Below the pieces are notes generated by a model. The model saw only the letters and a program-made list of their open reading frames with translations. It was not told the origin of the DNA and ran no database searches. Shown piece by piece: positions 16,840-56,212 of a DNA stretch of 63,936 bases (position 1 is its first letter; every line of letters begins with the position of its first letter). The stretch covers positions 1 to 63,936 of the IMG/VR virus record IMGVR_UViG_3300042541_000539; one strand, written 5' to 3'. The stretch is from a virus. Lineage: Duplodnaviria; Caudoviricetes. The position numbers and the translations under genes were made by a program.

Positions 16840-17106
16840 ATGGGACAATTTGGAAACCAACCAGACTTCGCGACAAAATCAACAACGTTAAGTGCCTTTC
16901 CAGCAACAGCAACTATACCTTCAGCGGTATATATTGGAGCATTTACAAGTGCTCTTAGCGCTGCTTCTATTACGGTTAGATTAGTTGGGGATAGCGCGGA
17001 TACTACTTTTTCAGGGCTTTCTCAAGGTACATTTATGCCTATAATTGTAACAAGCGTAACTAGTGCTGTGAATATACCGGCTGCTAGTATAATATTATAT
17101 AATTAG
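16840..17106 (+). CDS. small structural protein (capsid spike-base-like)
   Basis: AVYIG...ITVRLVG...TFSGLSQGTFMPIIVTSV pattern. Confidence 0.55.
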   Translation: MGQFGNQPDFATKSTTLSAFPATATIPSAVYIGAFTSALSAASITVRLVGDSADTTFSGLSQGTFMPIIVTSVTSAVNIPAASIILYN

Positions 17107-17125
17107 ATAAATTAAATTAAATCAA

Positions 17126-17392
17126 ATGGAAAATACAAACAAAATTACAGAAGAACAATTACAAACTATAATTAGGCATCAAAAAGAAATGAATGGCCTA
17201 TTAGTTAACATAGGATTACTTGAATCTCAAAAGCACGGATTGTTACATCAGATTGCTGAAGTAAATAAAGAGCTTGAGGGATTTAAACTTGAATTGCAAA
17301 ATCAATATGGTGAAGTGAACATTAATGTCGAAGACGGAACTTATACCGCTATCGAGAAAAATGATCCTGCTAAATTAGAAGTTGTACAATAA
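17126..17392 (+). CDS. coiled-coil hypothetical protein
   Basis: Heptads ending YGEVNINVEDG. Confidence 0.75.
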   Translation: MENTNKITEEQLQTIIRHQKEMNGLLVNIGLLESQKHGLLHQIAEVNKELEGFKLELQNQYGEVNINVEDGTYTAIEKNDPAKLEVVQ

Positions 17393-43600: not shown

Positions 43601-45227
43601 GGAGTTTATTGAAAATACCGAAAACATATTTGGTAAATTTGATAACGGCAGATTAGTTGGACCTAATATGAATAAAGTTGAAGCTGTTTACGGAACAAAC
43701 GTTAGAGAAGCATTGGAAGATTCTATATATAGAATGATCAATGGTAAAAACAGAAGCTACGGAGGTGATAAAGAAACAGCTGCGTGGAGTAGTTGGGTAA
43801 ATGGATCTACAGGAGCAATCATGTTCTTGAACACTCGTTCTGCTGCATTACAAATGTTAGGAGCTGTTAACTTCCTGAACTGGAGAGATAATAATCCATT
43901 CAATGCTGGTAAAGCGTTTTTGAACCAACCACAATACTGGAAAGATTTTGCTCGTATATGGAATTCTGACAAACTAAAAGAAAGACGTGGTGGATTAAGG
44001 GAGGATGTTGCTTCTGCCGAGATTGCAAATGCAGCGGCTAGTAGTAAAAACAAAGCTGTTGCAGTGACCTCGTATTTATTAAAAATAGGTTATACACCAA
44101 CACAACTTGCGGATAGTTTTGCTATTGCAATGGGGGGAGCGCCGTTCTATAGAAATAGAATTAATACTTATTTGAAAGAAGGACTTACAGAAGACGAGGC
44201 GGAATCAAAAGCGTGGGAAGAATTCTCAAAGGTGTCAGATGAAACACAACAATCAGGTGATCCAAAGGATATATCAAAACAACAATCGAGCGGCGCTGGT
44301 AGACTTTTATTAGTATTCCAAAACTTTACAATGCAGCAATCCCGAATCGTTAAAAAAGCCGCCTTGGATCTTAAGAATAGAAGAGGCGATGATAAAACTA
44401 ATATATCTAAAATAGTTTATTATCTAGCAGTGCAAAACATAATGTTCTCCACGTTACAACAAGGTTTGTTTGCTGTTTTATTTGATGATGACGAAGAAGA
44501 AGAGAAAAAAGATAAAAAGAAAAAAACAAGACAAGAAGCCGCTATTGATGTTGGAAATGGAGTATTCGACAGTATACTTAGAGGCACTGGATTTGTTGGT
44601 GGTGTAATAGCTACATTAAAGAATACAGTTATTAAATACCTAGAAGAAAAAGAAAAGAAACAAAAAGCTGAATATGCTAAGGTTGTTCTTGAGGCAGCAA
44701 ATATGTCTCCTCCAATTGGATCTAAATTAAGAAAAATATATAGTTCATTACAACAAACTAAATATGATAAAGACTTAATAGAAGCAAGAGGTTGGGGAGT
44801 AATGCAAGACGGCAGAGTTCACTTAGGCCCTATGTATTCTGTATCCGGAAAACTTGTTGAGGTTGGTGCTAATTTTCCTATGGATAGATTAGTAAATAAG
44901 GTAGAGAATCTTTCGCAAGCATTTAATGCAGAAAATACTGCAGTACAAAGATTAGCTACAGGACTTGGTTATTCGCCTTGGACAGTTGGAATTGAAGGCC
45001 CTAAAGGAGACTTGCTTATAAAAGCCGGCGCTAAAGAAAAGCGTAAAGAAGAAGGGGTGCTTAAAGCAATAAAAACTAGAAAAGAGAATAAAGAAAAACT
45101 GGAAGATAGTATCAAAGGCTTGTCAACCTATGAGCGAAGAGAATACAAAAGAAAAAAGCTTATAGAGAAAAGAGAGAAAAGAAAGAAAAGAATATTAATG
45201 GAAAGACAATTAAACGAGAACAGATAG
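37611..45227 (+). CDS. giant polyvalent virion protein (HExxH peptidase, sigma-region-2-like, HAD phosphatase domains)
   Basis: 2538 aa; QHEFLH, GILDLITKYKPDSGIPLAAFI, VFDFDDT...ILTAR...FADD. Confidence 0.75.
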   Translation: MLEYELNGKIYTEQDLINAAGGKDKLPAYIKSKGYKVANKKTTDFSEINKAKNKKIAIIPGVNDFGAEIDNKLKPFNFKEVSQGKEYKAIDVAKDKVKKEKQQPVTRLRNEVLDLDGKKAKEEDSGFVNYLKESFDSTVSTITQSFYKAPEFAYDIAASITNPIAKAIGKATGTEVKEASSERIMETFGIKNIPAEILQKRINESNKVIKEYSDKNGADPLTAIENGNYLGAAKLVAGGTVQSAPWMAAAILSGGSSTAMTAIAASTAVSKAEQLKIENPEMDVQDRTTNAIVSGALEGYLGQLFTGASGAVVKRIIADKGAKAGSKIISNGLMGTLEKAIEKSPMIGVIGEMAEEGGVELGNQLNDMNSGLRKELDYRQITNAGIIATGMAGTNTVPVYAAKGYMKAVEYNEVKKVNKEINSLTIQLSNPYIKDSDKKIISARVNRLVTENKAIVGSSLEKISALPESVKTELNVLNSGLDDLKSKYLELSDDTDLPIDIKKAMGSELILQAKEIQDRKTSIIEGNYIYEDFKKLPEAEQDRIKLLANETLVANSELTDDPKTKFNEDEIKREAVNIYNTELRTKDLNADIERTKQAVQAIGLGEDIDMPELNTANDVIDYLSSNTKLDENTIEDIADSYGAFIPLDNGKEALIINKEAAGMDQVVTTGQHEFLHKLIYKAVKDNVSLQKQMGSQLYNHIESYIGTEAFNNTEFKNRYDTYKKDFENTKAELDNKVLKAKDFFEKGNISQERYAQAIAEADEATSKAEGKYLEETLPLLSESLSKGDIKYEETFFTKIGDILRKAFQKYGLSKVKFDTGKDVFNFVRDYNKSFEKGQFTKAFKALAKEGTYKGSIAKGNAPVRTTTKTTVKKSQPLSQVETLKKQLKDIQDNEFDYDPDDFDQQIDNLKNKIKKAIEKEKTAPVVEIKKEVSEEDADKEIIKNERSSLSSDKVQKIYDDKGVNGAQDIIDLFKPITKKLVNRRMDAPGFDRELLTDEIETGSGGILDLITKYKPDSGIPLAAFINKYLPVRAIAASRRVLDKAFSKDVTEEKGLMAEETVSEVKEKPKYKNALEANVFEPGALEAAQNKILTVVRTLKSKIDEPISLNRTVTPIIAEIRDEIGRQLDIDLKTIMGGKKDDQLKKWLVKNKRYVLENMTTTWLMGKDGQGGIPQAVQKQVDGRWINYPDWVGKKIDRETTSTDLAGRTSGAELVRRLPGVANNVSEADYLSQILEPSGNPIRGRKESLAKAIAEESAFDIINKDFEDKGPIFEAFKTNQERLGAYLNDSVVNEFAKQAERGNIKFSAKLIKGFEISQDKLGKDIFNAETIEDEIGAINNWIASDGRSLRTLAWTIGKGLKKFTTNKGLFENIILPIIKTYSKFEGIVGEDSYRLEDTKKGQSIYFGEEKVPLWADTTLIKADWSNFTNKIDTESIKATNDLIDVVKYFKDNKQTKEDFESYLAFLRWDQRGLIRKVSKSGVGVLELNKKQEARLEHNPPVQSIVEKVTDLFDGKITENEFREFVDKARVNLVPKAVEDMLPEYEEGKNRMHDSKAVLYLQDLIDKGYKVTGLEKEYGSKAKFNSLVKLAKSGVTSKENIQNGKNINAVNSSLTVKYSKTPKGISVFDFDDTVGLTKSNVLYTMPDGTNGKLNAEEFAKEGGKLSAEGAVFDFSEFSKVVNGKPGPMVEKMKKMIGKFGPENFFILTARPANSAGPIHEFLSSIGIDIPLENITGLGNSAAQAKADWIVDKAANGYNDFYFADDAPQNVKAVQDALDVLDVKSKIQQARIKFSKTMSDDFNKIIEENTGMEDYKVFSDITAKRRGANKNKFDFYVPPSAADFELLLYKFMGKGPKGEEQKQFFEEALIIPYINGVDLMDAARQSIKRNYKELLKAFPDVKKELEKLTPNKDFTYDQAMRVAIWNQFDTEIPGLSQRDITYLSDLVNNDPELAAFKDGLIVMGRQEKGWLPPDDFWDATTIISDLYNITEGSGRKKFLGEFIENTENIFGKFDNGRLVGPNMNKVEAVYGTNVREALEDSIYRMINGKNRSYGGDKETAAWSSWVNGSTGAIMFLNTRSAALQMLGAVNFLNWRDNNPFNAGKAFLNQPQYWKDFARIWNSDKLKERRGGLREDVASAEIANAAASSKNKAVAVTSYLLKIGYTPTQLADSFAIAMGGAPFYRNRINTYLKEGLTEDEAESKAWEEFSKVSDETQQSGDPKDISKQQSSGAGRLLLVFQNFTMQQSRIVKKAALDLKNRRGDDKTNISKIVYYLAVQNIMFSTLQQGLFAVLFDDDEEEEKKDKKKKTRQEAAIDVGNGVFDSILRGTGFVGGVIATLKNTVIKYLEEKEKKQKAEYAKVVLEAANMSPPIGSKLRKIYSSLQQTKYDKDLIEARGWGVMQDGRVHLGPMYSVSGKLVEVGANFPMDRLVNKVENLSQAFNAENTAVQRLATGLGYSPWTVGIEGPKGDLLIKAGAKEKRKEEGVLKAIKTRKENKEKLEDSIKGLSTYERREYKRKKLIEKREKRKKRILMERQLNENR

Positions 45228-45261
45228 TAATAGGCAACATACCTATAGTTCCGTAAAAAGG

Positions 45262-45293
45262 AAGGGGACCACATTAGTGAATCCCCTTTTTTT
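45262..45293. terminator. probable bidirectional terminator at the arm convergence
   Basis: aagggga...tcccctt followed by a T run, between convergent genes. Confidence 0.75.
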
Positions 45294-45325
45294 ATTATAG
45301 TAAATTAAACTCTAAATAATCACCA

Positions 45326-45532
45326 CTAAGGTTCAGGAACCGAGGTTTCTTCTTTTTCAACTTGCTTTGTCATAGCTTTAATCGCGTCTTCGTAACCAGG
45401 CATTAACTTGATTACTTCTAATGTGCCTGCAGCGAGTGTGGTTAAATGTTGTTGTTCACTCATTACTTGTTGTAAAAGCCTAATTAAGGCGTCTACTTTG
45501 TTTTTCATTTCAACTAAGGTTTGTTCTTTCAT
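45326..45532 (-). CDS. hypothetical protein
   Basis: 68-aa helical ORF. Confidence 0.7.
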   Translation of the reverse strand: MKEQTLVEMKNKVDALIRLLQQVMSEQQHLTTLAAGTLEVIKLMPGYEDAIKAMTKQVEKEETSVPEP

Positions 45533-46092
45533 TTTTTTATTTTATAAAACATTACAAATACTATTCTACTGTCTGTGAATTCGTTAGGATACTTACTATG
45601 GAAGTAATTACATGGGTAAGATATTAATCTATTCTTTTTATGGCCTATAATAGATTTTAAGTCCCATAGATCAAGATCATTAGCATCCTCGTTTAATAAT
45701 CTATTTTGTTCTTCAACACTAATATTCTCTAATTTATGCCCGTGCTTTTTATGTTCCCAGAAAGCAGTTCCGTTTAAACCGTCTTGCTTACACTCCGAAA
45801 CAAATAATACGCACGCTCTATCTGGTTGTTGTCCTTCTATTATTGAATCATTATGTATTCTCCAATCTTGATCTTGGCCTTGTTTAGCTTCACGCATAAA
45901 ACCTAATATAGGTTCTATTCTATTGCCTTCCAGATCTTCAATCTCAAACTTTATAATATGCATGATTGGCGAAGGAAGTCTTTTAACCCAGAAGGATTTT
46001 CCAGGAGTTTTTACTTCCTGGAATTCTTCCTTATTGGTATTTAATAATTCAATTAAATTTGTGTCTAAAAAATCGTCTTTTATATATATCAT
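45529..46092 (-). CDS. 2OG-Fe(II) oxygenase-fold protein
   Basis: HxD (IHND), GTAFW, NRLISY..YFHS and distal R. Confidence 0.8.
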   Translation of the reverse strand: MIYIKDDFLDTNLIELLNTNKEEFQEVKTPGKSFWVKRLPSPIMHIIKFEIEDLEGNRIEPILGFMREAKQGQDQDWRIHNDSIIEGQQPDRACVLFVSECKQDGLNGTAFWEHKKHGHKLENISVEEQNRLLNEDANDLDLWDLKSIIGHKKNRLISYPCNYFHSKYPNEFTDSRIVFVMFYKIKK

Positions 46093-46117
46093 ACGAATAC
46101 GCTCATGCTTTTCTTAG

Positions 46118-46474
46118 TTATAACGAGCATTGCTTTTTTTTTAATTTAAACTTTATCATTTTTTTATTATTTGTATAAAAATACAATTCATCTGCTATTG
46201 TTAAGAATAAAGTATAATAATGTATATTATCCGAGCAGGTATATATGTGGCCAGTAAGCATCTTCTTTTTATCGAGGATCATGTTCTTAGCGCGTACCTT
46301 TAATTTCTGTTCAAATAAATATACACTATCATTCTTTATTTCAAAACAACCATCTTTACTTACAATATTAAATTTGCCAAAGTAATCTCTTAAATAAATT
46401 TCATTATAATAATATTCTTGTGAGATTAATTTAGTAGCAAATAATAAAAATAATATTAAAAATTTTTGTTTCAT
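46118..46474 (-). CDS. exported protein with signal peptide
   Basis: MKQKFLILFLLFATKLIS|QE; very AT-rich. Confidence 0.6.
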   Translation of the reverse strand: MKQKFLILFLLFATKLISQEYYYNEIYLRDYFGKFNIVSKDGCFEIKNDSVYLFEQKLKVRAKNMILDKKKMLTGHIYTCSDNIHYYTLFLTIADELYFYTNNKKMIKFKLKKKQCSL

Positions 46475-46479
46475 ATTGA

Positions 46480-48342
46480 TTAAGTTATTTCGCAGTTACC
46501 TCCGCCGCAAGCAGCAGAATCACCGAAGTTTGTATTGTCTTGTATTTCAATTACTTTAGACAAATCAACGTCTTTTAAGGTTAGCATCATTTCTTCGTAT
46601 ACTTCTTTAGTACAATCCTCAAATGGCGTTTGTTTATAAGTTCCACCGTGATAAGGTAATACAGACAAACCGTTGTAGTATTCTTTGTTTGCCCACATCC
46701 ACTCACCAACAATTTTCCACTCATCATCTCTAACGGAAACTGTACAAGAAACATTATGTGTATTGTTTCCTTTATCATGACCTGTCTTAACCCAATCCTT
46801 AGAAATCAATTTAACACGTTCCAACAAATCTAATGTAGACTCATGTCGTGTTATAGCTCCATTAGGAGCCTTCTGAGGCACAGAAACGACTGCTTGTAAT
46901 GTTGGATTAAAATATTCATCTTCGATCAGTTCTGGATGATGTATGGCTAAATAAGAATAGATTGCTTCATTCTTGCCCAATCGCATTCTACGGATGTAAT
47001 AGTCGTTATGCCAAGCATGAATCCCACTGCTAGTGCCGAGCACCAAAGAAGTAGTTCCAGCAGGTTTAACAGCAGTAGTACGAGCAGCCCTGTTAATATT
47101 AAGGGCAGCAGAAATAACATTATTAGTTTCTTTAACAACTTGAGCGGCTTCTTCATAGTTTAATTTTAAGTTAGATTTAGAGGCGATACCCGTCATTGAT
47201 ACGCCAAGCAATGCGTCTTTTTCTGTATTCTTTCTCCATATATCACGAAGATAATGAAAGTCTGAATACGACGCCTGTAATGTTCCTAAGAACGCCGCGG
47301 CTGATGCTCTCGCGTTGAATTCTTCTTGACTTTCGATGTCCGCCATATTAATCTCTGTAAGATTACAAAACTGATATGGTCTTAATGCGATCTCACAACA
47401 AGGATTAGTTCCCCAGTCCTTATCATTAGTTAAGTATATACCAGGTTCTCCTGATCCAGATGCTTCAATACGCTCCCATACTTTATCAAATGTTTTCTTA
47501 TCAATCTTATGACGCAGCAAAACAACTGAGTTATTTGATCTACCTCTTTGCGGATTGTTTTCCCACCAATTACCAGCCTTGCAATTCAACATTGCATCGG
47601 AATCAAGATCAAACAAACTAATCATTGCAGCACGTCTAATGCCTCCAGCTAAAACAGCATCAGCAATGTGACACTGAATATCGTGGCACTCAATATCCGT
47701 GAGCTTTGATCTATCTGCTTTTTCTCTAAGAATAGCTTCAATCTTAACTAAGGTTAATCTTAATGGTTCAGGCCCTGGTGCTTTACCTCCTGCGGTTACT
47801 AACAATGCCCCCTTATGTCTGATGTCAGAAAAGTCAAACTCTATATGAGATGTCAATGCTCCCGTATATGATTTGAATAATACCTTAACTGCATCAGCCC
47901 AACCGATAATACTATCCTGAACTACATATCTTTTCTTACGATCGTAATTTGGCTTTCTAATTTCCGGGAGCTTTTCAATTTGGTGATTCTGTACCGAATA
48001 GCCGACTCCGGTACCGCCAAGCAATAGAAACATAGTCTCAGAAAAACTATGAATACTATCGATAGGTAAAAAAGCACAGTTGTAAACGCGAGCATTATTA
48101 AGCTCGATAGCTTTACCACCAAATTGCAAACTACGCATTGATGGTAAAACTTTTTTAGTAAACACGAAATCCTTATAAATTTGCTCAATTGGTTCTTTCA
48201 TTTTCGGGAACTTAGCAATATGCATTTCCATATTTCTAGTAACTAATTCATCCCAGGTTTCTCTTCTTTCTTTATTCGGCAGGTATTTTGCATACTTAGT
48301 GTAGATAGTTATAGAACTGAGAATGTCTTTGTCTAAATCCAT
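46480..48342 (-). CDS. nrdJ: class II (adenosylcobalamin) ribonucleotide reductase
   Basis: YNCAF, GIRRAA, TNPCCEI, VKPAGT, C-terminal CGGGNC; no small-subunit gene. Confidence 0.9.
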   Translation of the reverse strand: MDLDKDILSSITIYTKYAKYLPNKERRETWDELVTRNMEMHIAKFPKMKEPIEQIYKDFVFTKKVLPSMRSLQFGGKAIELNNARVYNCAFLPIDSIHSFSETMFLLLGGTGVGYSVQNHQIEKLPEIRKPNYDRKKRYVVQDSIIGWADAVKVLFKSYTGALTSHIEFDFSDIRHKGALLVTAGGKAPGPEPLRLTLVKIEAILREKADRSKLTDIECHDIQCHIADAVLAGGIRRAAMISLFDLDSDAMLNCKAGNWWENNPQRGRSNNSVVLLRHKIDKKTFDKVWERIEASGSGEPGIYLTNDKDWGTNPCCEIALRPYQFCNLTEINMADIESQEEFNARASAAAFLGTLQASYSDFHYLRDIWRKNTEKDALLGVSMTGIASKSNLKLNYEEAAQVVKETNNVISAALNINRAARTTAVKPAGTTSLVLGTSSGIHAWHNDYYIRRMRLGKNEAIYSYLAIHHPELIEDEYFNPTLQAVVSVPQKAPNGAITRHESTLDLLERVKLISKDWVKTGHDKGNNTHNVSCTVSVRDDEWKIVGEWMWANKEYYNGLSVLPYHGGTYKQTPFEDCTKEVYEEMMLTLKDVDLSKVIEIQDNTNFGDSAACGGGNCEIT

Positions 48343-48361
48343 TGTTTTGTTTTTATATTGT

Positions 48362-48550
48362 TTATACGCTTACTACTAATTTCCAAACCGCTCCTTTATC
48401 AGATGATGGCGGGAATGTTTCTCTTTTTGAAAGAGGAATGTATTGATCACCACTTCTATAAATTCCGCTAACAACAGCTTTCTTCCCTGTGGTTCCAATA
48501 ACATTTTCGCTAGTATATTCTAACAATAATAATAAAATCTTTTTAATCAT
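48362..48550 (-). CDS. YjzC-like small protein
   Basis: TGKKAVVSGIY...ETFPP...WKLV. Confidence 0.6.
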   Translation of the reverse strand: MIKKILLLLLEYTSENVIGTTGKKAVVSGIYRSGDQYIPLSKRETFPPSSDKGAVWKLVVSV

Positions 48551-48572
48551 AGTTTTTGTTTTAAGTTTAAAT

Positions 48573-48764
48573 TTATTTGTCTATCTCTAATGCAATGTCA
48601 ATAAACGGTAAGTAAAGCACATGTGTTGAATAAGTTGGTTCCTCATAAGTTCTCATACCAAACAATATACCCGGGTAAAATCCTATAGATACACTCCAAT
48701 ACTTTTCGTCTTGAAATTCTGGTTCTTCTGGAATGTTAACTGGTGGTAATTTCTTTTTTGTCAT
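48573..48764 (-). CDS. hypothetical protein
   Basis: GFYPGILFGMRTY...HVLYLPFID. Confidence 0.7.
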   Translation of the reverse strand: MTKKKLPPVNIPEEPEFQDEKYWSVSIGFYPGILFGMRTYEEPTYSTHVLYLPFIDIALEIDK

Positions 48765-48824
48765 TTGTTTCTGTTTTTTAGGATTAATTCAATTGTTAAG
48801 TCACAATCACGCTGACTCTGCGGT

Positions 48825-49289
48825 TTATAGTTTATTGTATTTAAGTTTTTCAAGATGTTTTTTTATTATCTCAACTGCTTTATCGCAATCCGTGTGTGAC
48901 TGTGGTTTCAACAGTAGCCTACCTGGGTCGTTTTTACGTATCCAATCTTTAAATAACTTATATCTAAGAGGGAAGCTCTCATTAGCTCTTCCTTTTGTTT
49001 CGCATGTCCACCCATCGCCTTCAAAATCAGGAGTGTACTTAATACCTAATACTTTTTTATTCCCTCTATCCACAAAATCGCCTTTACCATTAGATTGCCG
49101 CTCAATAGAACTGCTGTTAAATTGGAATGTATCTAATAACTGGTACGTTCTACCTTCATATCTAAAATCTATTTTAGCATTCTTTAAAGCAATATACATA
49201 TACTTTTCTAGCCCAGAGGCGAAAGCAATAGAATCATATACTATTTTTTTAGCTACAACCGGGCCTTTCTTACGGGACATCTTTTTCAA
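48825..49289 (-). CDS. T7 endonuclease I-like resolvase
   Basis: FASGLE...YTPDF...ETKG. Confidence 0.8.
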   Translation of the reverse strand: MKKMSRKKGPVVAKKIVYDSIAFASGLEKYMYIALKNAKIDFRYEGRTYQLLDTFQFNSSSIERQSNGKGDFVDRGNKKVLGIKYTPDFEGDGWTCETKGRANESFPLRYKLFKDWIRKNDPGRLLLKPQSHTDCDKAVEIIKKHLEKLKYNKL

Positions 49290-49744
49290 CTGTTTGAAAT
49301 ATTCATTCTATCTATATCAACTGTGCCTGTATTTGCTTTCCAAGTACCTGATCCGTTTGTTTTCCAATTAAAAAAATCATCCGCAAGAGTGCTATTCATA
49401 TCGTCTATTTTAAAGGCATAATGATTGCCACGCCCAATATTAGTCTTCATTGGCTTATCTTTTTTTTTAGTAGGCACTTCAAAAGCATCTATAACATCAA
49501 TATCATTTATTTCGTTTAGCAATGCTTTTTCTTCACGCAACGTAGATATTTCTTCTTTTAAACGTTGAAGATACAATGTAGCATCCATAAGCTCCTCTTG
49601 TAAATGATTAAGCCATGTAAATACATCAGAGTTATCATTGCGTAATGTTTTGCCATACTTAGCAAAGCCAACATCAGAACGATCTACAAATTTGTTTACT
49701 ACAGATTGGACAACAGGGTCTCTAAATTCAATTTCTTGTTTCAT
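49286..49744 (-). CDS. all-alpha NTP-pyrophosphatase-like protein
   Basis: VGFAKYGKTL...WLNHLQEELMDATLY; start revised to MKQEIEF. Confidence 0.6.
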   Translation of the reverse strand: MKQEIEFRDPVVQSVVNKFVDRSDVGFAKYGKTLRNDNSDVFTWLNHLQEELMDATLYLQRLKEEISTLREEKALLNEINDIDVIDAFEVPTKKKDKPMKTNIGRGNHYAFKIDDMNSTLADDFFNWKTNGSGTWKANTGTVDIDRMNISNS

Positions 49745-49745
49745 A

Positions 49746-50555
49746 TTATAGTGTTTGTTTTTGAAATGTTCCGTTAACCATTTGGCCATGTCTAGACTTA
49801 ATTACATCATAAGCTGATGTAACGCAGTCTTCAATTTTTAATCCTTCTAATGCGGCTAGATTAGTTAATACAACAACCATATCGCCAATAGCATCAATAA
49901 ACTCTGCTTTGTCATTTTTAAGAATGGCTCTTGCTAATTCGCCAGACTCTTCTAATAACTTTATGTATTGTGTTTTAGTATCGCCAGATTTATATATACC
50001 GCGCTCGTCTGCCCATTTTCTAATTAGATCATATGTGTTAGGATTTTCAGCAACAACAGATTCTGGTTGATTATAATAATCAGTAGCCATTGATCTTTTA
50101 CCTAAAGACTTTGTAAACTCATCCATTGCTTTATTATACACATAAGATCTACTTGGGTTGAACATGGAAGTATTAGCATTTTTAACTACCCACTCAACTA
50201 GATCGTCAGTTAGAACATATGTCCCAAAACTAGTTTGAATTTTAATTCCTTTATTGTCCATTAGATTACCTTTAAGTTTATTTACAGGACAAGGAAAGGT
50301 TGTTGTTTGATCTGTTACATTTAATACCATTTGATTTATTTGTTTTTGAGTTAAATTTTTATAAGATTGTCTATCTTGTTTGTAACCGTAGATAGATTGA
50401 AGTTCTAATTCACGTGATGACGCATAGTCTATATCGTCCGTAGTTTCTAAAACTTCATATTCGTTTTCTTTATAGCCTTGCTCACGAGTAACCCTATTAA
50501 TAAGATTACGCGTAACTCCTATCTTTTTACCAAAAATGTGATATATAAAATACAT
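49746..50555 (-). CDS. GIY-YIG-like domain fused to a MazG-like pyrophosphatase
   Basis: N-terminal YFIYHI..KIGVT..R; C-terminal KLLEESGEL...DAIGD. Confidence 0.75.
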   Translation of the reverse strand: MYFIYHIFGKKIGVTRNLINRVTREQGYKENEYEVLETTDDIDYASSRELELQSIYGYKQDRQSYKNLTQKQINQMVLNVTDQTTTFPCPVNKLKGNLMDNKGIKIQTSFGTYVLTDDLVEWVVKNANTSMFNPSRSYVYNKAMDEFTKSLGKRSMATDYYNQPESVVAENPNTYDLIRKWADERGIYKSGDTKTQYIKLLEESGELARAILKNDKAEFIDAIGDMVVVLTNLAALEGLKIEDCVTSAYDVIKSRHGQMVNGTFQKQTL

Positions 50556-50563
50556 AATTTAGA

Positions 50564-51331
50564 TTAAATGGCCACTTTTGCTGAAATTACTGGGCCGTGT
50601 TTATAATTTATCAAGGTTAATGCTCCGTTTTCGTAAATGTAGTCTGGAGACTGAAAAGTTTCTTGATCGAGATATTTATGTATAGCATCGCGTTGATTGG
50701 CGTAAATGTGTGCATCAATTATCTGCACGTCTATTCTGTTTGCTTTTAAATCAACCTTGCTTGATACGTATAATAATATTTTAGAGAACAACGCCATGTC
50801 ATAAGGTATACCTAAAAACATATCACCTGATCTTTGTAGCACAAACATATTAAGTTTGTTGTTATCCACAAAGAATTGAAAGTACAAATAACATGGAGGC
50901 AATCGCATTTGATCTAACTGAATAGGATTCCATAAACTTATAATGTGTCTACGGCTGTCTGGATCATCAATTAATTGTTTAATAACTATTTGCATCTGAT
51001 CTATATTTTGATCATTAAAATTGCGCATTTGATGCCCATACACAGGCCCAAGATCACCATTCTCATCTGCCCAAGCATCCCATATCCTTACGCCTGCTTC
51101 TTGGAATCTTTTAATGTTTGTTTCGCCATTTATAAACCATTCAAACTCTGTATCAAAAGTCTTTTGAAACATTTTTCTACCTGTTATTAATGGAAAGCCA
51201 TCATTAAGATTTACACTTAGACTAGCATTGAATATTGAGTTACAGCCAACACCTGTTCTATCCGCTCTTTGTGTATCGGAATTCAGGCACTTGTTAAGTA
51301 ATTCTTTGTATTGTGCTTCGTACTTTGTCAT
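50564..51331 (-). CDS. thymidylate synthase homologue with Asn177-to-Asp (candidate dCMP methylase/hydroxymethylase)
   Basis: DRTGVG, LGPVYG, SRR, LPPCY, QRSGDMFLGIPYD, AHIY. Confidence 0.85.
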   Translation of the reverse strand: MTKYEAQYKELLNKCLNSDTQRADRTGVGCNSIFNASLSVNLNDGFPLITGRKMFQKTFDTEFEWFINGETNIKRFQEAGVRIWDAWADENGDLGPVYGHQMRNFNDQNIDQMQIVIKQLIDDPDSRRHIISLWNPIQLDQMRLPPCYLYFQFFVDNNKLNMFVLQRSGDMFLGIPYDMALFSKILLYVSSKVDLKANRIDVQIIDAHIYANQRDAIHKYLDQETFQSPDYIYENGALTLINYKHGPVISAKVAI

Positions 51332-51332
51332 A

Positions 51333-51668
51333 TTAAAATAGTTTTAAATTATCGGCGCTATTTGTTGTTTGCTGCCGAAGTAATGGTTCTTTTTTTACAA
51401 CGGTTATTTTCTCTTCTTTTAATTCTTTATTGTATTTATCATAATAGTATGTATAAAATTTATATATTTGTTTCCATATGTCTGTTTTCTTATAAGATTC
51501 AGGGCTTATATTTTCTTTACCATTTATAACGATGCATATAAACCATTCAATTGAACTTAAAGCTTTTGGCGATATGTATATATTATTTCTAACACACCAT
51601 AAATAAGCTAACTGTTCTTTAGCAGAATAAATATAATTACCCATATCTATTGGGGGCTGCCTTGCCAT
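51333..51668 (-). CDS. hypothetical protein
   Basis: 111-aa ORF, tightly packed. Confidence 0.7.
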   Translation of the reverse strand: MARQPPIDMGNYIYSAKEQLAYLWCVRNNIYISPKALSSIEWFICIVINGKENISPESYKKTDIWKQIYKFYTYYYDKYNKELKEEKITVVKKEPLLRQQTTNSADNLKLF

Positions 51669-51779
51669 TTATTCCCACGGCATTTTATCGTTATTGCTGA
51701 CTGCTGGAAAGTGTGGAATAAAACAGCCTGAAGCCGGCTCCCATACAAAATGGCATTCAGCGCCATTCTCTCCAAGGTT
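51669..51779 (-). pseudogene. orphaned diverged copy of the primase-helicase 3' end
   Basis: NLGENGAECHFVWEPASGCFIPHFPAVSNNDKMPWE versus QLGENGAEAHFNWDPKSGCFIPHYPAVNSDDKLPWE. Confidence 0.9.
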
Positions 51780-52132
51780 TATGTCATAGATAAACCCTCC
51801 ATAGCTAATACTGATTGGAACATTGCTTCCATATATTTTATTTCTTTTCTTGATTCGCATGTGTAAAGTATTTTAATGTCCTCTATTTCTTTTCCAGTTC
51901 TTTTATGATAATTAAATCTTGATTCAGGTTCATTGGTAATCCCTATGTAATGGTGTGAAGGTATATAATATAATAAATAATAATCCAATCTTTTTAATTT
52001 AAACCTTCTTGCGGAATCAATTTTACAGCATGCTTTACATGTAAATCTATGCCCTTCCTTTTCTTTTGCAGCTTTATTGAATTCAATTAAATTTTTTGTA
52101 ATATTGCAAATTTTGCATTTTCTATTTATCAT
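51779..52132 (-). CDS. Zn-finger plus GIY-YIG-like endonuclease
   Basis: CKIC...CKAC; YLLYY...YIGIT...RFNYH...E. Confidence 0.75.
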   Translation of the reverse strand: MINRKCKICNITKNLIEFNKAAKEKEGHRFTCKACCKIDSARRFKLKRLDYYLLYYIPSHHYIGITNEPESRFNYHKRTGKEIEDIKILYTCESRKEIKYMEAMFQSVLAMEGLSMT

Positions 52133-52134
52133 AA

Positions 52135-52566
52135 TTATAAATGTCTATGAATAGCTTGTCTACTTACATTAAGTACATTTGCTATAAAAGTTATTGATTC
52201 TTCTGGTAATAATTCTTGTATCATCTTAATTTTATCTTTAGTCTTTAATCTTTTATTGTTACTTATTTGCATAACTTGTTTTGTAGATTCTAAAGATTCT
52301 TTCATTTTATTAAGATACAAATTAGAAGACTTTATTTTTCTGTCAGCTAATTCCCTACTCCACTTGTAGAGCCATTCATTGAGCCAGCTATAAGGCTTCT
52401 TCCAGTTATCAAATCCTTCAATGCAATGCAGTTCCCATTTGTTCCCGTGTATTTTGTGTAACCACCAGTATTCAAATCCATCAAAAGTAATCTTATGATT
52501 TTCTGGAATACATAATGATTCAAGATCTTTGTCAGACCAACTCGTTATGTTCATATCTATTTCCAT
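52135..52566 (-). CDS. protein with C-terminal HTH
   Basis: SITFIANVLNVSRQAIHRHL. Confidence 0.7.
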   Translation of the reverse strand: MEIDMNITSWSDKDLESLCIPENHKITFDGFEYWWLHKIHGNKWELHCIEGFDNWKKPYSWLNEWLYKWSRELADRKIKSSNLYLNKMKESLESTKQVMQISNNKRLKTKDKIKMIQELLPEESITFIANVLNVSRQAIHRHL

Positions 52567-52689
52567 TTTGTTATATTTATATTATTACACCTTTACACAG
52601 AAACTTACGGTTACTGTAAGCTTTTATTTTATTAACACCTAATTGCCAGTTATTTATAATTTAAAATAATTTTATTATATACATATTAA

Positions 52690-54399
52690 TTATTCCCACG
52701 GTAACTTGTCGTCGCTATTGACTGCTGGATAATGTGGGATAAAACAGCCTGATTTAGGATCCCAATTAAAATGCGCTTCCGCTCCGTTTTCACCAAGCTG
52801 TTGAAACTTACACTTTAATACTTTAACTTTAACAGTTTTGTTTTCATAGTCTCTGTGTACTAATAAACCATGATAAGATGCATCATACCATTCGCCACCG
52901 CCTTTAATATTATACATTGTAGGTTCTTCAATCTTACCGCTACTGTCTTTATACATTTTAGTAGGGTGCGCAACAACCATTACGAGCACATCGTATTTTT
53001 TAGCAAAGATTTCTATTTGACTTAAGTATTCTAATGTATAAACATTAACATCACCGGATGCATCGTTAGATCTTACCTTGTTAAATGGATCAATAACTAA
53101 GCATTTAATTCCTTTACGTTTAACTAGCTCTGCGCCTTTACGTAGTACAGATTCTAATGTATAACGTTCCATGTCGATAAAGAAATAGTTATCATTAACA
53201 TGATCGGCAACTTGATTCCACTTTTCAGTTTTAATATCTTCAACGCCGGGCATACCTTGCCATGTTTTACGCATTAACTTGTGAGCATGCAAATATGTTG
53301 GGTGATTTTCAGGTGATGCATACGCTGTTTTCCAGCCATACTTTTCATTGTATCCAATAACCATTTGATCTACAAAATCAGATTTACCAGAAGATGGTAT
53401 ACCGGTAACAGTAATGAATTGACCAGTGTACGTAGAAAAAATATCATCAAAATTAGACAAGCCAATTTGGAAACCGGGTTTGAAACCATTTCTAACAAAG
53501 TCTGTAACTTCATCTTCAATGTCCCTAAACGTAGTAACGTTTTCAAGCGGCACGGGTTTTGATCTTGATATTCTTTGAGATAATGCTTCTTTACCATACT
53601 TAATTAAATATTCGTTTGCATCTTTGCAATCATCAAAGGTTGCAATGTAACATGTTTCTGATCCTAATCTTCTAACTAACTCAGTTTGCAATGCTTGACC
53701 TGCTGCATCTGAATCAACAGCAATAATGATCTTTGTTTTGTCATCAAAGTAATCAATACAGTTATCTAGATATTCTAAATTGTTTGTGCCTAACGTGGCT
53801 CCATTTGGTACTGAGATTGCGTTTGTGATACCGGCTTCATGCAATGCAAGCACATCCATTTCTCCCTCAACAATAACGCAATATTCAAAACCAACAATAC
53901 TATTAATATTATAAAATACTTTTTCAGCTCCTTTGAATAATTTAAAGTGTTTGTGTCCATCTCTGTATTTTACGTTTATAAGTTGATCGCCAATGAAATA
54001 ATTAAAGTGTATTGCGTTTTCTGTTTTTCCAGTCTGAGGCATAAACTCAGGACCTTCTGTAACTTGTAAGTCTGTTAATGTTTGTTCTGATATTCCTCTA
54101 TTGTTAAACCATTCAACAACTTTTGAAGTTGCAGGAACTAATGTTGATGTTGGTCTTGTATATATTTTTTCACTTGCTCCTTTGCGTTGGTACGTATGCA
54201 ACTGAAATGTCTTGTTACAGTTATGGCATGTACCTATACCGCGATCCCAATCATAAGATGCACACTTTGCTTTTTCATTCTTAGGTTTTCTATCAGGAGA
54301 ACAGATTGGGCATATGCCACTAGTCTTGCCTTCATCTAATTTGTGAATATTAAATGTATCTATTAAGAAACCATTAATTTCGCTTGTTTGTACGGTCAT
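52690..54399 (-). CDS. T7 gp4/Twinkle-like primase-helicase
   Basis: CPIC...CHNC, TOPRIM IVEGEMD and DSD, Walker A GIPSSGKS, VIDP, VAHP. Confidence 0.93.
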   Translation of the reverse strand: MTVQTSEINGFLIDTFNIHKLDEGKTSGICPICSPDRKPKNEKAKCASYDWDRGIGTCHNCNKTFQLHTYQRKGASEKIYTRPTSTLVPATSKVVEWFNNRGISEQTLTDLQVTEGPEFMPQTGKTENAIHFNYFIGDQLINVKYRDGHKHFKLFKGAEKVFYNINSIVGFEYCVIVEGEMDVLALHEAGITNAISVPNGATLGTNNLEYLDNCIDYFDDKTKIIIAVDSDAAGQALQTELVRRLGSETCYIATFDDCKDANEYLIKYGKEALSQRISRSKPVPLENVTTFRDIEDEVTDFVRNGFKPGFQIGLSNFDDIFSTYTGQFITVTGIPSSGKSDFVDQMVIGYNEKYGWKTAYASPENHPTYLHAHKLMRKTWQGMPGVEDIKTEKWNQVADHVNDNYFFIDMERYTLESVLRKGAELVKRKGIKCLVIDPFNKVRSNDASGDVNVYTLEYLSQIEIFAKKYDVLVMVVAHPTKMYKDSSGKIEEPTMYNIKGGGEWYDASYHGLLVHRDYENKTVKVKVLKCKFQQLGENGAEAHFNWDPKSGCFIPHYPAVNSDDKLPWE

Positions 54400-54415
54400 A
54401 TATTATTTAATTTAA

Positions 54416-54766
54416 TTAGTTTCTAAACATAGTCATTGGCAATCCTTCCATCGCTAAAACAGATTGAAATAATATCTCATGATATGCTGCCTCTTTTTTA
54501 TTAGCAGAACAATATAATAATCTATAATTATCTACATTTTTACCGTTATTTTTATGAATACTTATACGTTTTTCTAAATAATCCGTAATTCCGCAATAAT
54601 TTTCATTTGGTAAATAATAAACATAATAATAACCTGTTTTCATTCTACTATTACGGCAAGTATTGCACATTGCTCTATGAAATTGATTACCTTTTTTATC
54701 TCTATTTTTAGCATAATTTTTTAAAGGTTTTAATTCTTTGCATATACTGCAATTTTTTGTTTCCAT
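54416..54766 (-). CDS. Zn-finger plus GIY-YIG-like endonuclease (paralogue of 51779-52132)
   Basis: CSIC...CNTC; YVYY...YCGIT...R; shared FQSVLAMEGL. Confidence 0.75.
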   Translation of the reverse strand: METKNCSICKELKPLKNYAKNRDKKGNQFHRAMCNTCRNSRMKTGYYYVYYLPNENYCGITDYLEKRISIHKNNGKNVDNYRLLYCSANKKEAAYHEILFQSVLAMEGLPMTMFRN

Positions 54767-54786
54767 AATAATTTGATTGTTACATA

Positions 54787-54822
54787 TATATTATCAATAT
54801 ACAATCGTGTTTTGATTGTAAG
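54787..54822 (-). promoter_or_regulatory. early promoter motif
   Basis: tatattatca-N8-tcgt-N8-tgtaag. Confidence 0.8.
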
Positions 54823-54845
54823 ATCATTACTAATTCTAGATAGAA

Positions 54846-54866
54846 AGACCCCAATAAATGGGGTCT
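54846..54866 (-). terminator. terminator hairpin
   Basis: agacccca-N5-tggggtct followed by TTCT on the minus strand. Confidence 0.7.
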
Positions 54867-54876
54867 AACTAACTAA

Positions 54877-55088
54877 GGTGTTATAAGGCAGTTGGGACCG
54901 AAGGCTTGCAACCACACTATATTAAAGCCGATTCTTATTTGTAACTTCTCGAGTAGTGCCGGCTAACGACCTATATTCTATGGCAATGTTTACGTCTAGC
55001 CAGTGTTGACGGGGCTTCACAAATAGTACTTAGCTTGTACGACATATAATCTATTATTAGAATAGTTACAAGCACCCTTTATAATACT
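54877..55088 (-). ncRNA. candidate structured ncRNA (RNA-A)
   Basis: Intergenic; terminal pairing GCTTGTAAC/GTTGCAAGC, internal stems, downstream terminator. Confidence 0.55.
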
Positions 55089-55139
55089 GTCCAAACTAAA
55101 TCCTGCTTTCGTTGTCTAGACTTTGTTCTGTATTATATT

Positions 55140-55460
55140 TTAGAACGGGAGATCATCGATCGGAGCCGGTGCCCGTTGTGCAGGAGCTTGTGCTTGTTGA
55201 CCTGAATCAGTTCGGGGTGCAACATCAACATTAGCGCCGTTCGTCCATACCACTTTAACATTTCCAAGGTATACTTTTGCTGCTTTTCCATCTCTCTCTT
55301 CTTTAGATTGTTCAACCATCACTGGTCCTTGATTTCCAAACTGATCCACTTCATCATTGATTGTAACGGTGATGGGCAGGTATTTTCCCTTCTTTCCGTC
55401 AATGATTTTGTGCTTTGGAATCTCATTCAAATTAATACTCATTTTTAAAATACTTGCCAT
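55140..55460 (-). CDS. single-stranded DNA-binding protein (putative)
   Basis: GKKGKYL...YLGN with a DDLPF tail; next to exonuclease and ERF. Confidence 0.75.
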   Translation of the reverse strand: MASILKMSINLNEIPKHKIIDGKKGKYLPITVTINDEVDQFGNQGPVMVEQSKEERDGKAAKVYLGNVKVVWTNGANVDVAPRTDSGQQAQAPAQRAPAPIDDLPF

Positions 55461-55477
55461 AATTCTCGTTTTTTGTT

Positions 55478-56212
55478 TTAGTTAAGGGTTTTAGTAATTA
55501 GAAATTGTTGAGGATCAAAATCCTCTGTTTTATAAAATAAATCGTATGCTTCAACTGCTCGCATAACTTTGTCTTCGCCTGTTTGTAAAAATTTATCTGA
55601 ACAATCAAATATACCTATCTGATGCGTTCCTTTATCTATTGCCATAAAAATCATATCATATCCAAACAACTTCTTATAAATATATGCTTGACTATCATAA
55701 TTGTATTTCTTAGCTGAATAAGCAAAGTCCGCAATGTTAGATGTTGTTTTAAGATCTACAATCAATCCTTCGTCGTGGTTTAATATATCTGCTTTGCCTT
55801 TCCACATTGTACCAAATAATTCTACAATGCCAGGAACTTCATAGTCTACATTAAAACCGCGGATAAGATCTTTGCATATATTATTGGCGAGCATCGTATC
55901 TTTCATTAGTTCAATTCGGTCAGCTTCGTGTTGCAGCAGACATATTTCACCTCCAGATGCTTCTTTATATATATTAGTATTTCTAGTGGATGCTTTAATA
56001 ATTTTGTACTTGTGTAGTTTATCAGGTTCAAGAATGGCGGTGTGGAAATAACCGCCAATTACAAAATTAGGATTAGGATCTTGAGGAGCATTCATTAATG
56101 CTGGATTAGTAAGCAACGCAGATATATTTGAGTTACTTAAAAAGTTTTTACCAAACTCGCCATAATAATGCTCATCATTTTTTAACTTCTCTATTATTTC
56201 TTCTTTAGTCAT
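55478..56212 (-). CDS. PD-(D/E)XK exonuclease (RecE/ExoVIII-like)
   Basis: LSNS, FHTAILEP, KGKAD, IVDLKTT, YDSQAYIY. Confidence 0.85.
   Translation of the reverse strand: MTKEEIIEKLKNDEHYYGEFGKNFLSNSNISALLTNPALMNAPQDPNPNFVIGGYFHTAILEPDKLHKYKIIKASTRNTNIYKEASGGEICLLQHEADRIELMKDTMLANNICKDLIRGFNVDYEVPGIVELFGTMWKGKADILNHDEGLIVDLKTTSNIADFAYSAKKYNYDSQAYIYKKLFGYDMIFMAIDKGTHQIGIFDCSDKFLQTGEDKVMRAVEAYDLFYKTEDFDPQQFLITKTLN

Follow-up and report, generated by a model that had tools for sequence, protein, structure and literature searches.

The IMG/VR virus record IMGVR_UViG_3300042541_000539, analyzed here over its full 63,936 bases (the window; G+C 31-39%), carries on its minus strand a homologue of the thymidylate synthase ThyA in which the residue setting pyrimidine specificity is aspartate and, directly downstream, a fusion protein that ends in a MazG-type nucleoside triphosphate (NTP) pyrophosphatase domain. 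We propose, with moderate confidence, that these two proteins form a pre-replicative pathway in which a deoxycytidine monophosphate (dCMP) methylase and a MazG deoxycytidine triphosphatase (dCTPase), completed by host kinases and a host polymerase, would give phage DNA containing 5-methylcytosine. The features concerned are as follows, with residues given both in the numbering of the window's protein and in that of Escherichia coli.

50564..51331, minus strand: ThyA-family enzyme of 255 amino acids (aa), predicted dCMP C5-methyltransferase (PF00303, PHROG and residue matches)
50798..50800, minus strand: GAC codon of Asp178, equivalent to E. coli Asn177 (HMMER and MAFFT alignments)
50888..50893, minus strand: TGT TAT codons of the catalytic Cys147 (E. 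coli Cys146) and of Tyr148 (E. coli His147)
49746..50555, minus strand: three-part fusion of 269 aa, with a MUG113/T5orf172-like domain, a middle domain and a C-terminal MazG domain
50331..50555, minus strand: N-terminal domain of the fusion, about aa 1-75, MUG113/T5orf172-like by profile matches of its homologues
49749..50045, minus strand: MazG domain of the fusion, aa 171-269 (PF03819 E 2.6e-07, PF01503 E 3.9e-06)
49286..49744, minus strand: conserved small protein, function unassigned, 152 aa from Met16; the longest open reading frame (ORF) runs from 49789

The ThyA homologue matched the Pfam family PF00303 (Thymidylat_synt) at an E value of 1.5e-73 over profile positions 2-265 of 266, phrog_160 at 2.8e-79 and E. 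coli thymidylate synthase (PDB model 2tsc, HMMER) at 3.9e-60. Over 262 columns it shares 40.8% identity with E. coli ThyA. It accounts for the one PF00303 match in the window and is the sole thymidylate synthase family gene found there. Residues were mapped by HMMER alignment to the PDB and by MAFFT alignment with E. coli K-12 ThyA, which agreed; E. coli numbering is used from here on. In the MAFFT alignment the full ThyA catalytic set is identical to that of E. coli (Cys146, the phosphate-binding Arg21/126/127/166, Glu58, Tyr94, Asp169, His207, Tyr209), Trp80, Leu143 and Ser167 are also kept, and the protein ends in VAI, as does E. coli ThyA. The canonical signature for deoxyuridine monophosphate (dUMP), Asn177 with His147, is replaced by Asp and Tyr both here and in all 55 aligned relatives: the Asp of the GIPYD motif aligns with Asn177, and the Tyr of PPCY aligns with His147. 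An earlier note on this DNA had picked out both the GAC-encoded Asp at 50798-50800 and the PPCY in place of PCH, and both are borne out by the alignments.

Published work attaches a meaning to each of these positions. Position 177 sets the pyrimidine specificity of ThyA, and a change from Asn to Asp moves it from dUMP to dCMP with 5-methyl-dCMP as the product, according to the passages on specificity in an eLife 2021 paper (PMC8670742); the same passages cite Asn177Asp mutants of the E. coli and Lactobacillus casei enzymes that switch to dCMP, and place 177 and 147 as the top two residues separating cytosine-modified from unmodified phage contigs. For residue 143, the corresponding passages of a NAR 2026 paper (PMC13326640) associate a bulky hydrophobic side chain with methyl and Asp or Glu with hydroxymethyl products, and give Asp169Asn as the mark of flavin-dependent 5-hydroxy-dCMP synthases. 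The window's enzyme combines Asp177 with Leu143 and Asp169, the pattern of a 5-methyl-dCMP synthase (Asp177, Asp169 kept, a non-acidic residue 143), and has neither the acidic residue 143 of the T4 gp42 type, a residue that admits water, nor the Asn169 of the 5-hydroxy-dCMP synthases. This combination predicts 5-methyl-dCMP, not hydroxymethyl- or hydroxy-dCMP, as the product. The suggestion of the earlier note that the ThyA-family enzyme is specific for dCMP is therefore supported by sequence tests together with the published residue code, and can be narrowed to methylation through Leu143 and Asp169. The rule for residue 143 is not absolute, because the validated, methyl-forming enzyme of phage Xp12 shows Asn at this column of the alignment. 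In the experiments described in a bioRxiv preprint (10.1101/2024.12.05.627091, in the parts concerning E. coli assays), five of seven Asp-type metagenomic homologues tested, as well as the Xp12 enzyme, gave 5-methyldeoxycytidine in E. coli, the modified deoxycytidine triphosphate (dCTP) being incorporated by the polymerase of the cell itself.

The aspartate is a feature of a whole clade. A scan of IMG/VR returned 56 related loci of 60-98% identity, and the PYD motif with Asp177 is present in all of them, encoded by GAT in 48 and by GAC in 8. Since Asp occurs in every relative and is written with both codons, it is a selected feature of the clade and not a sequencing accident. Each of the 55 aligned relatives reads Leu-Cys-Tyr-Asp-Asp at positions 143/146/147/169/177, and the C-terminal tail is V-A-I or V-A-V in 53 of them and I-A-V in the other 2. 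In the wider family, HMMER found 14,852 relatives at E <= 0.001 among 1.84 billion representatives; from the best 150 of these, the 110 that are 200-340 aa long were aligned. The canonical signature L-C-H-D-N was read in 72 of the 110, L-C-Y-D-D in 11, L-C-H-D-D in 11 and L-C-P-D-D in 7; Asp177 is usually accompanied by a change at 147. A FastTree phylogeny of 123 rows placed the query and its relatives in a supported group (98), surrounded by the other Tyr147/Asp177 sequences as an unresolved grade; the Xp12 enzyme fell among the Pro147 sequences on a long branch, with the deep nodes unsupported. Among 4205 matching records of a phage collection, none was at least 60% identical to the ThyA protein, and the nearest cultured-phage enzymes checked, from phages of Arthrobacter, Microbacterium and Bacteroides (about 40% identity), carry His147/Asn177 in three of three cases.

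The fusion gene starts 8 nucleotides (nt) past the ThyA stop codon, and its C-terminal domain is a real MazG-type NTP pyrophosphatase by profile, motifs and four-helix fold. PF03819 and PF01503 match all 32 fusion homologues, and five acidic residues of the metal-binding motifs are invariant (E202, E203, E206, D221 and D225, in the arrangement EExxE ... DAIGD). In the AlphaFold model of the fusion (mean predicted local distance difference test score 82.6), this domain superposes on the MazG structure 1vmg with a Z score of 9.5 and a root mean square deviation of 2.3 over 81 residues (VIA-align). The top Foldseek rows were RS21-C6 and DCTPP1 (E 6.4e-03 to 1.5e-02, probability 1.00), tied with generic MazG and PRA-PH structures, and no substrate can therefore be read from them. 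The presence of a MazG fusion directly downstream of ThyA, as stated in the earlier note, is thus confirmed by the MazG/PRA-PH profile matches. At the N terminus, MUG113 matched 13 of the 32 homologues (best E 2.2e-05) and T5orf172 matched 12 (best E 9.4e-05); the window's own N terminus matched only DUF7039, under the cut-off, and its look-alikes in the Atlas carry T5orf172 and MUG113. Both are families that we take to belong to the GIY-YIG clan. Invariant residues of this domain are Y5, H6, K11, G13, T15, R21 and E49. The middle domain has no family assignment, and fold searches listed rows over residues 160-269 only. Within the phage collection, no record covered at least 80% of the fusion protein and no cultured phage had such an architecture.

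Linkage of the two genes is a consistent property of these loci. In all 56, a MazG-fusion gene is found no more than about 600 nt downstream of ThyA; nine of them (L048-L056) sit on a different, smaller phage backbone encoding Erf, a helicase, a flap endonuclease and a DnaA-like helix-turn-helix protein. For a wider sample, an alignment of Tyr147/Asp177 representatives was matched against IMG/VR and the best 80 of the 591 matches were taken, some of them on contigs that also belong to the 56-locus set; loci were classed by residue 177, and 8 kb on each side was searched with a hidden Markov model (HMM) of the clade's MazG domain. With the provisos that PYD was itself a selection criterion in one of three search patterns and that the HMM may miss distant MazG types, this MazG type was found near 39 of 42 Asp177 loci, 38 times directly downstream (gaps of -39 to +167 nt) and once upstream, and near none of 38 Asn177 loci, one of which has an Xp12-like PRA-PH gene (Fisher's p ~1e-19, for loci that are related). 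When the Asp-type enzymes were clustered at 50% identity, MazG was present in 4 of 6 clusters; in one of the Asp-type loci scored as a miss, the fusion gene is cut by the contig end. More distant Asp-type loci encode MazG as a stand-alone gene of about 105 aa, and the fusion and the small helical protein are confined to the query's wider clade. A neighboring NTP pyrophosphohydrolase, one component of the Xp12-type module, is thus present here.

For the third gene, the assignment proposed earlier finds no support. The earlier note had counted two pyrophosphatases, the MazG fusion and a second all-alpha NTP pyrophosphatase-like gene at 49286-49789; the former stands, and the latter is not supported, as Pfam, PDB, hhalign and fold searches all failed to relate the small protein to a pyrophosphatase. 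Its start is likely Met16 at 49744, because the ORFs of relatives begin there. The protein comprises a 60-residue core, a helical hairpin with 12 invariant residues and one invariant acidic EExxD stretch, followed by a variable tail. No Pfam family matched it at E <= 0.01, relaxed scans of 28 members gave only chance-level rows, a profile search of the PDB gave no credible match (one row at E 1.4), and hhalign against the neighboring MazG domain returned a probability of 1.3%. The structural model is a two-helix hairpin whose best Z score, 5.9, was to generic coiled coils only. A Walker-A match (GFAKYGKT) is a chance one, its Gly and Lys not being conserved and the stretch being helical in the model. 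Of the 56 loci, 46 have the gene directly after the fusion gene and another 7 have it at a different place; it occurs only with a fused MazG (19 of 21 fused loci, 0 of 18 unfused). One locus, L016, has two copies (7847-8059 and 8593-9030), one short and one diverged at 39% identity.

Further genes of the known cytosine-modification pathways were sought in the window and in five relatives rated 100% complete (G001-G005; 66.3-67.6 kb, one with terminal repeats). None of these six genomes matched DNA_pol_A, DNA_pol_B, dCMP deaminase, ThyX, a C5 DNA methylase or a T4 gp1-like deoxynucleoside monophosphate (dNMP) kinase, the last searched for without a positive control. Dihydrofolate reductase, sought with the Xp12 protein only and in the neighborhoods of related loci, was not found. 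The primase-helicase is the only convincing P-loop protein; divergent kinases or polymerases may escape detection. The dCMP-type deaminase, dihydrofolate reductase and own DNA polymerase that belong to the Xp12-type module are accordingly unmatched here (PF00383, PF00476 and PF00136 for deaminase and polymerases). The remark in the earlier note that no phage polymerase or dNMP kinase is visible thus holds, and extends to the five complete relatives. Completion of the pathway would therefore fall to host enzymes.

The principle of such a pathway is already in print for Xp12, T4 and the MetaGPA metaviromes. Xp12, whose DNA is fully 5-methylcytosine, and its relatives AXL1 and PaMx74 share with the query Asp177, Tyr176, a retained Asp169 and a replaced His147. 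As in the window, a MazG/PRA-PH-type fusion (257 aa, PRA-PH E 6.6e-15) adjoins the Asp-type ThyA of Xp12, and a pyrophosphohydrolase adjoins the ThyA homologue of AXL1, as noted in the part of PMC9206674 describing that region. The gene row of Xp12 consists of the PRA-PH fusion, the Asp-type ThyA, a dCMP-type deaminase and dihydrofolate reductase, with polymerase I elsewhere; unlike the query, its pyrophosphatase lies upstream, its ThyA has Pro147 and is 23.6% identical, and similarity between the two pyrophosphatase fusions is detectable only in the MazG motif (BLASTP E 0.85). In T4, gp42 and gp56 likewise pair an Asp177-type ThyA-family enzyme acting on dCMP with an all-alpha pyrophosphatase that destroys dCTP. 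The gp56 dCTPase matches dUTPase_2 and, weakly, PRA-PH, which suggests that it is the same kind of all-alpha pyrophosphatase. The T4 enzyme gp42 is 25% identical to the query over 203 columns, has Asp at 143 and lacks the ThyA tail, and T4 encodes its own kinase (gp1), polymerase (gp43) and glucosyltransferases.

Other comparisons concern the two proteins singly. E. coli ThyA N177D and L. casei thymidylate synthase N229D resemble the query in joining the specificity switch to an otherwise intact ThyA scaffold, whereas the query's switch is natural, conserved and accompanied by a second change, His147Tyr. Metavirome homologues from MetaGPA and IMG/VR share the positions 177 and 147 and the co-occurrence with PRA-PH/MazG, in the account given by the relevant sections of PMC8670742. 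The IMG/VR mining outlined in bioRxiv 10.1101/2024.12.05.627091 kept only contigs with a dCMP-type deaminase, a filter that the query's clade would fail. The 5-hydroxy-dCMP synthases of RB69, DLP3 and RL38JI also belong to the ThyA family and have Asp177, but differ in Asp169Asn, Leu143Glu and flavin use, as set out in the passages on these enzymes in PMC13326640. Mouse RS21-C6, human DCTPP1 and the MazG of cyanophage S-PM2 have the same fold as the query's MazG domain. The S-PM2 enzyme prefers dGTP and dCTP and is proposed to recycle nucleotides of a GC-rich host (PMC6850273, in the passages on its specificity), and DCTPP1 removes methylated dCTP (PMC13291643, in the corresponding part), the opposite of what the query would need. 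The window is distinctive in three respects: its enzyme belongs to the Tyr147 branch, its MazG is fused to a MUG113/T5orf172-like domain and comes with a companion protein, and no phage kinase, deaminase or polymerase was detected.

From the residue pattern and the gene pairing we infer a substrate and a product for the ThyA homologue, a specificity for MazG, the host steps and the base in the DNA, as follows. The ThyA homologue would act as a folate-dependent deoxycytidylate C5-methyltransferase, converting dCMP to 5-methyl-dCMP. The MazG domain would hydrolyze dCTP to dCMP and pyrophosphate, both removing the competing nucleotide and feeding the methylase, as T4 gp56 does for gp42. Deoxynucleotides would be supplied by the phage ribonucleotide reductase encoded further along the same strand. 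Host nucleotide kinases could then phosphorylate 5-methyl-dCMP to 5-methyl-dCTP, which the host replicative polymerase, together with the phage primase-helicase, could build into the phage genome. The resulting DNA would be partly or fully 5-methylcytosine and shielded from cytosine-reading nucleases. In outline this is the reading of the earlier note (a dCMP enzyme, a dCTP-depleting pyrophosphatase and host enzymes), which the sequence tests support.

Several observations weigh against this proposal. The ThyA homologue shares only 23.6% identity with the validated Xp12 enzyme and falls in another branch (Tyr147 versus Pro147), and no tested enzyme of the Tyr147 type is known to us. The kinase, deaminase and polymerase of the known pathways were matched by nothing in the genomes searched. 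The sections of PMC13326640 on the published E. coli assays describe co-expression of a phage dNMP kinase, and there a 5-hydroxy-dCMP synthase without a kinase gave only trace incorporation. The MazG domain is about 55% identical to the stand-alone MazG of Paenibacillus phages, which are not known to have modified DNA, and its fold therefore says nothing on dCTP specificity. Finally, several palindromes containing C are depleted in the window (observed/expected 0.64 for CATG, 0.69 for GTAC and 0.69 for GGCC), and GATATC occurs once against 13.8 expected; complete protection predicts otherwise, although this is a weak test. In the complete relative G005, GATATC occurs 3 times against 14.9 expected, and CATG, GTAC, CTAG and AATT are depleted in both genomes. 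Such depletion may reflect host restriction pressure.

Whether the enzyme could act on dCMP and yet form another C5 product, 5-hydroxymethyl-dCMP or 5-hydroxy-dCMP, perhaps decorated further, turns on the residues around Asp177, which is itself common to T4 gp42 and the 5-hydroxy-dCMP synthases. Leu143 and Asp169 are those of ThyA, not the Asp/Glu143 or Asn169 of these enzymes, and the ThyA-type tail is retained (V-A-I or V-A-V in 53 of the 55 relatives, I-A-V in 2). The C-terminal tail of ThyA closes the active site for hydride transfer. The Leu143 rule is a correlation only, to which the Asn of the Xp12 enzyme is an exception, and a DUF6445-like protein with a His-x-Asp...His pattern, encoded at 45529-46092, might favor such a product; its gene, however, occurs in only 12 of the 56 related loci, and no glycosyl- or carbamoyltransferase was found among the approximately 30 window ORFs scanned, which lie outside the structural ORFs at 14214-45227. 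We consider a C5 product other than methyl decidedly unlikely. A related possibility is that 5-methyl-dCMP is made and hardly reaches the DNA: MazG would convert dCTP to dCMP, the ThyA homologue would methylate it, and a host deaminase would turn the product into thymidine nucleotides, leaving little or no 5-methylcytosine in the genome. An AT-rich genome (G+C 31-39%) is in keeping with such pool conversion, as is the finding of no other thymidylate synthase (PF00303 in the window, ThyX in the window and five complete relatives). The likely Flavobacteriia hosts are AT-rich, however, which makes an argument from GC recycling weak. For this purpose an Asn-type ThyA would be the simpler means, but all 56 loci have kept Asp. 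There are precedents in the nucleotide-recycling proposal for S-PM2 MazG and its preference for dGTP and dCTP (in those passages of PMC6850273), and in the Xp12-type phages, which deaminate part of their 5-methyl-dCTP to deoxythymidine triphosphate; but phages with this known bypass carry a deaminase beside ThyA, in the description given by the pertinent parts of bioRxiv 10.1101/2024.12.05.627091, and no deaminase was found in the window or the five complete relatives. On balance, pool conversion is unlikely.

An ordinary, dUMP-using thymidylate synthase accompanied by a general house-cleaning MazG would fit the Pfam and PHROG labels, the 40.8% identity to E. coli ThyA, and the full catalytic set and ThyA tail. 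It would have to accommodate Asp177, the very change by which the E. coli and L. casei enzymes were switched to dCMP (mutants cited in the passages of PMC8670742 mentioned above). It would also have to accommodate the family distribution, in which 72 of 110 representatives and three of three of the nearest cultured-phage enzymes checked have His147 and Asn177 and in which enzymes with Asp177 usually depart from His147 too, as well as the association of MazG with 39 of 42 Asp-type and 0 of 38 Asn-type loci. We therefore regard it as highly improbable. Returning to the proposed dCMP methylation pathway, we speculate that the two-gene ThyA-MazG cassette is portable and, in phages lacking their own polymerase, kinase and deaminase, needs just host kinases and the host replicative polymerase to exchange cytosine for 5-methylcytosine, and that in this freshwater clade the GIY-YIG-clan domain captured by MazG and the small helical protein cut unmodified host cytosine DNA, like T4 endonuclease II, to feed the pathway; as a joint claim, this is unlikely.

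If 5-methylcytosine is indeed present, these widespread lake-water phages would obtain it by pre-replicative cytosine modification with the smallest gene set seen, and would show how few genes of its own a phage needs in order to evade restriction that reads cytosine, and possibly CRISPR nucleases as well. Methylation-sensitive library methods may then under-sample such viruses. The Tyr147/Asp177 branch would be an added type of dCMP methylase and a possible reagent, and an Asp-type ThyA together with one MazG subtype could serve as a two-gene marker to predict modified-cytosine phages in metagenomes.

The gene pair belongs to a tightly packed early-gene string on the minus strand at 45.5-63 kb, which includes a sigma-like factor, Erf, an exonuclease and the primase-helicase. 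Downstream of the primase-helicase follow a 111-aa protein, the ThyA homologue, the MazG fusion and the small protein, and then a DUF1064 protein, two tiny ORFs and a ribonucleotide reductase, all on this strand. Flanking features are given below.

51333..51668, minus strand: conserved protein of 111 aa, function unassigned, directly upstream of the ThyA homologue
46480..48342, minus strand: ribonucleotide reductase, 620 aa, in the same co-directional gene string as ThyA
45529-46092, minus strand: DUF6445-like protein, 187 aa, just after the reductase (19 bits, under the Pfam cut-off)

The 111-aa protein had no match in Pfam or PHROG. Its gene lies upstream of ThyA in the related loci L002-L047 and L057 except L029, where the position falls beyond the contig end. 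The reductase matched phrog_367 (E 5.1e-130) and Ribonuc_red_lgC (E 2.3e-09), with the insertion domain of class II ribonucleotide reductases at 22.5 bits, under the Pfam cut-off; it is probably a class II enzyme, judging from these profiles, and a likely source of deoxynucleotides. The DUF6445-like protein has a His-x-Asp ... His pattern, and its look-alikes in the Atlas carry DUF6445, presumably a 2-oxoglutarate oxygenase-like family. It was considered as a 5-methylcytosine oxygenase, and a sequence search of the PDB gave no match, the only look-alikes being of DUF6445.

Upstream of the 111-aa gene, the window departs from its relatives, in which the primase-helicase is followed directly by that gene. 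A 63-aa ORF at 51669-51860 (minus strand) repeats the last approximately 34 residues of the primase-helicase (52690-54399), and a 143-aa ORF and a GIY-YIG-like ORF (51779-52132) lie between the two. Contigs from two other runs skip 51779-52801 (1021 nt). The arrangement at 51669-52801 resembles the insertion of a free-standing homing-endonuclease cassette at the 3' terminus of the primase-helicase gene, accompanied by duplication of this terminus. Paralogous small ORFs at 54416-54766 and 51779-52132 (both minus strand) flank the primase-helicase; each combines a zinc-ribbon-like N terminus with a weak match to GIY-YIG (E 3e-04 and 2.6e-03), and relatives differ in whether they carry these ORFs.

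The primase-helicase is closest to those of phages of Flavobacteriia (43% to Cellulophaga phage phi10:1), with 171 Flavobacterium phage records among its matches, and metagenome runs of lake water and fresh water, produced by several studies, contain near-identical or related DNA. By these sequence matches, the host is probably a member of the Flavobacteriia and the habitat lake water or fresh water. A megablast search of 44000-56000 against the phage collection gave no close cultured relative. Some segments of the region, such as 51180-51459 in X11, are overlapped by contigs from RNA libraries, which is not proof of transcription.

The window is collinear with the complete relative G005, in which its two ends are adjacent; CheckV nevertheless rates it 66% complete. 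Approximately 4 kb of G005 (62848-66285 and 1-742; L064, L061) is absent from the window at 17103-17126, and this extra stretch holds ORFs of 649 and 496 aa with no Pfam match. On the plus strand, at 12413-13957, the window encodes a Cpn60/GroEL-type chaperonin of 514 aa (PF00118 E 2.1e-55), which has 85% identity in G005.

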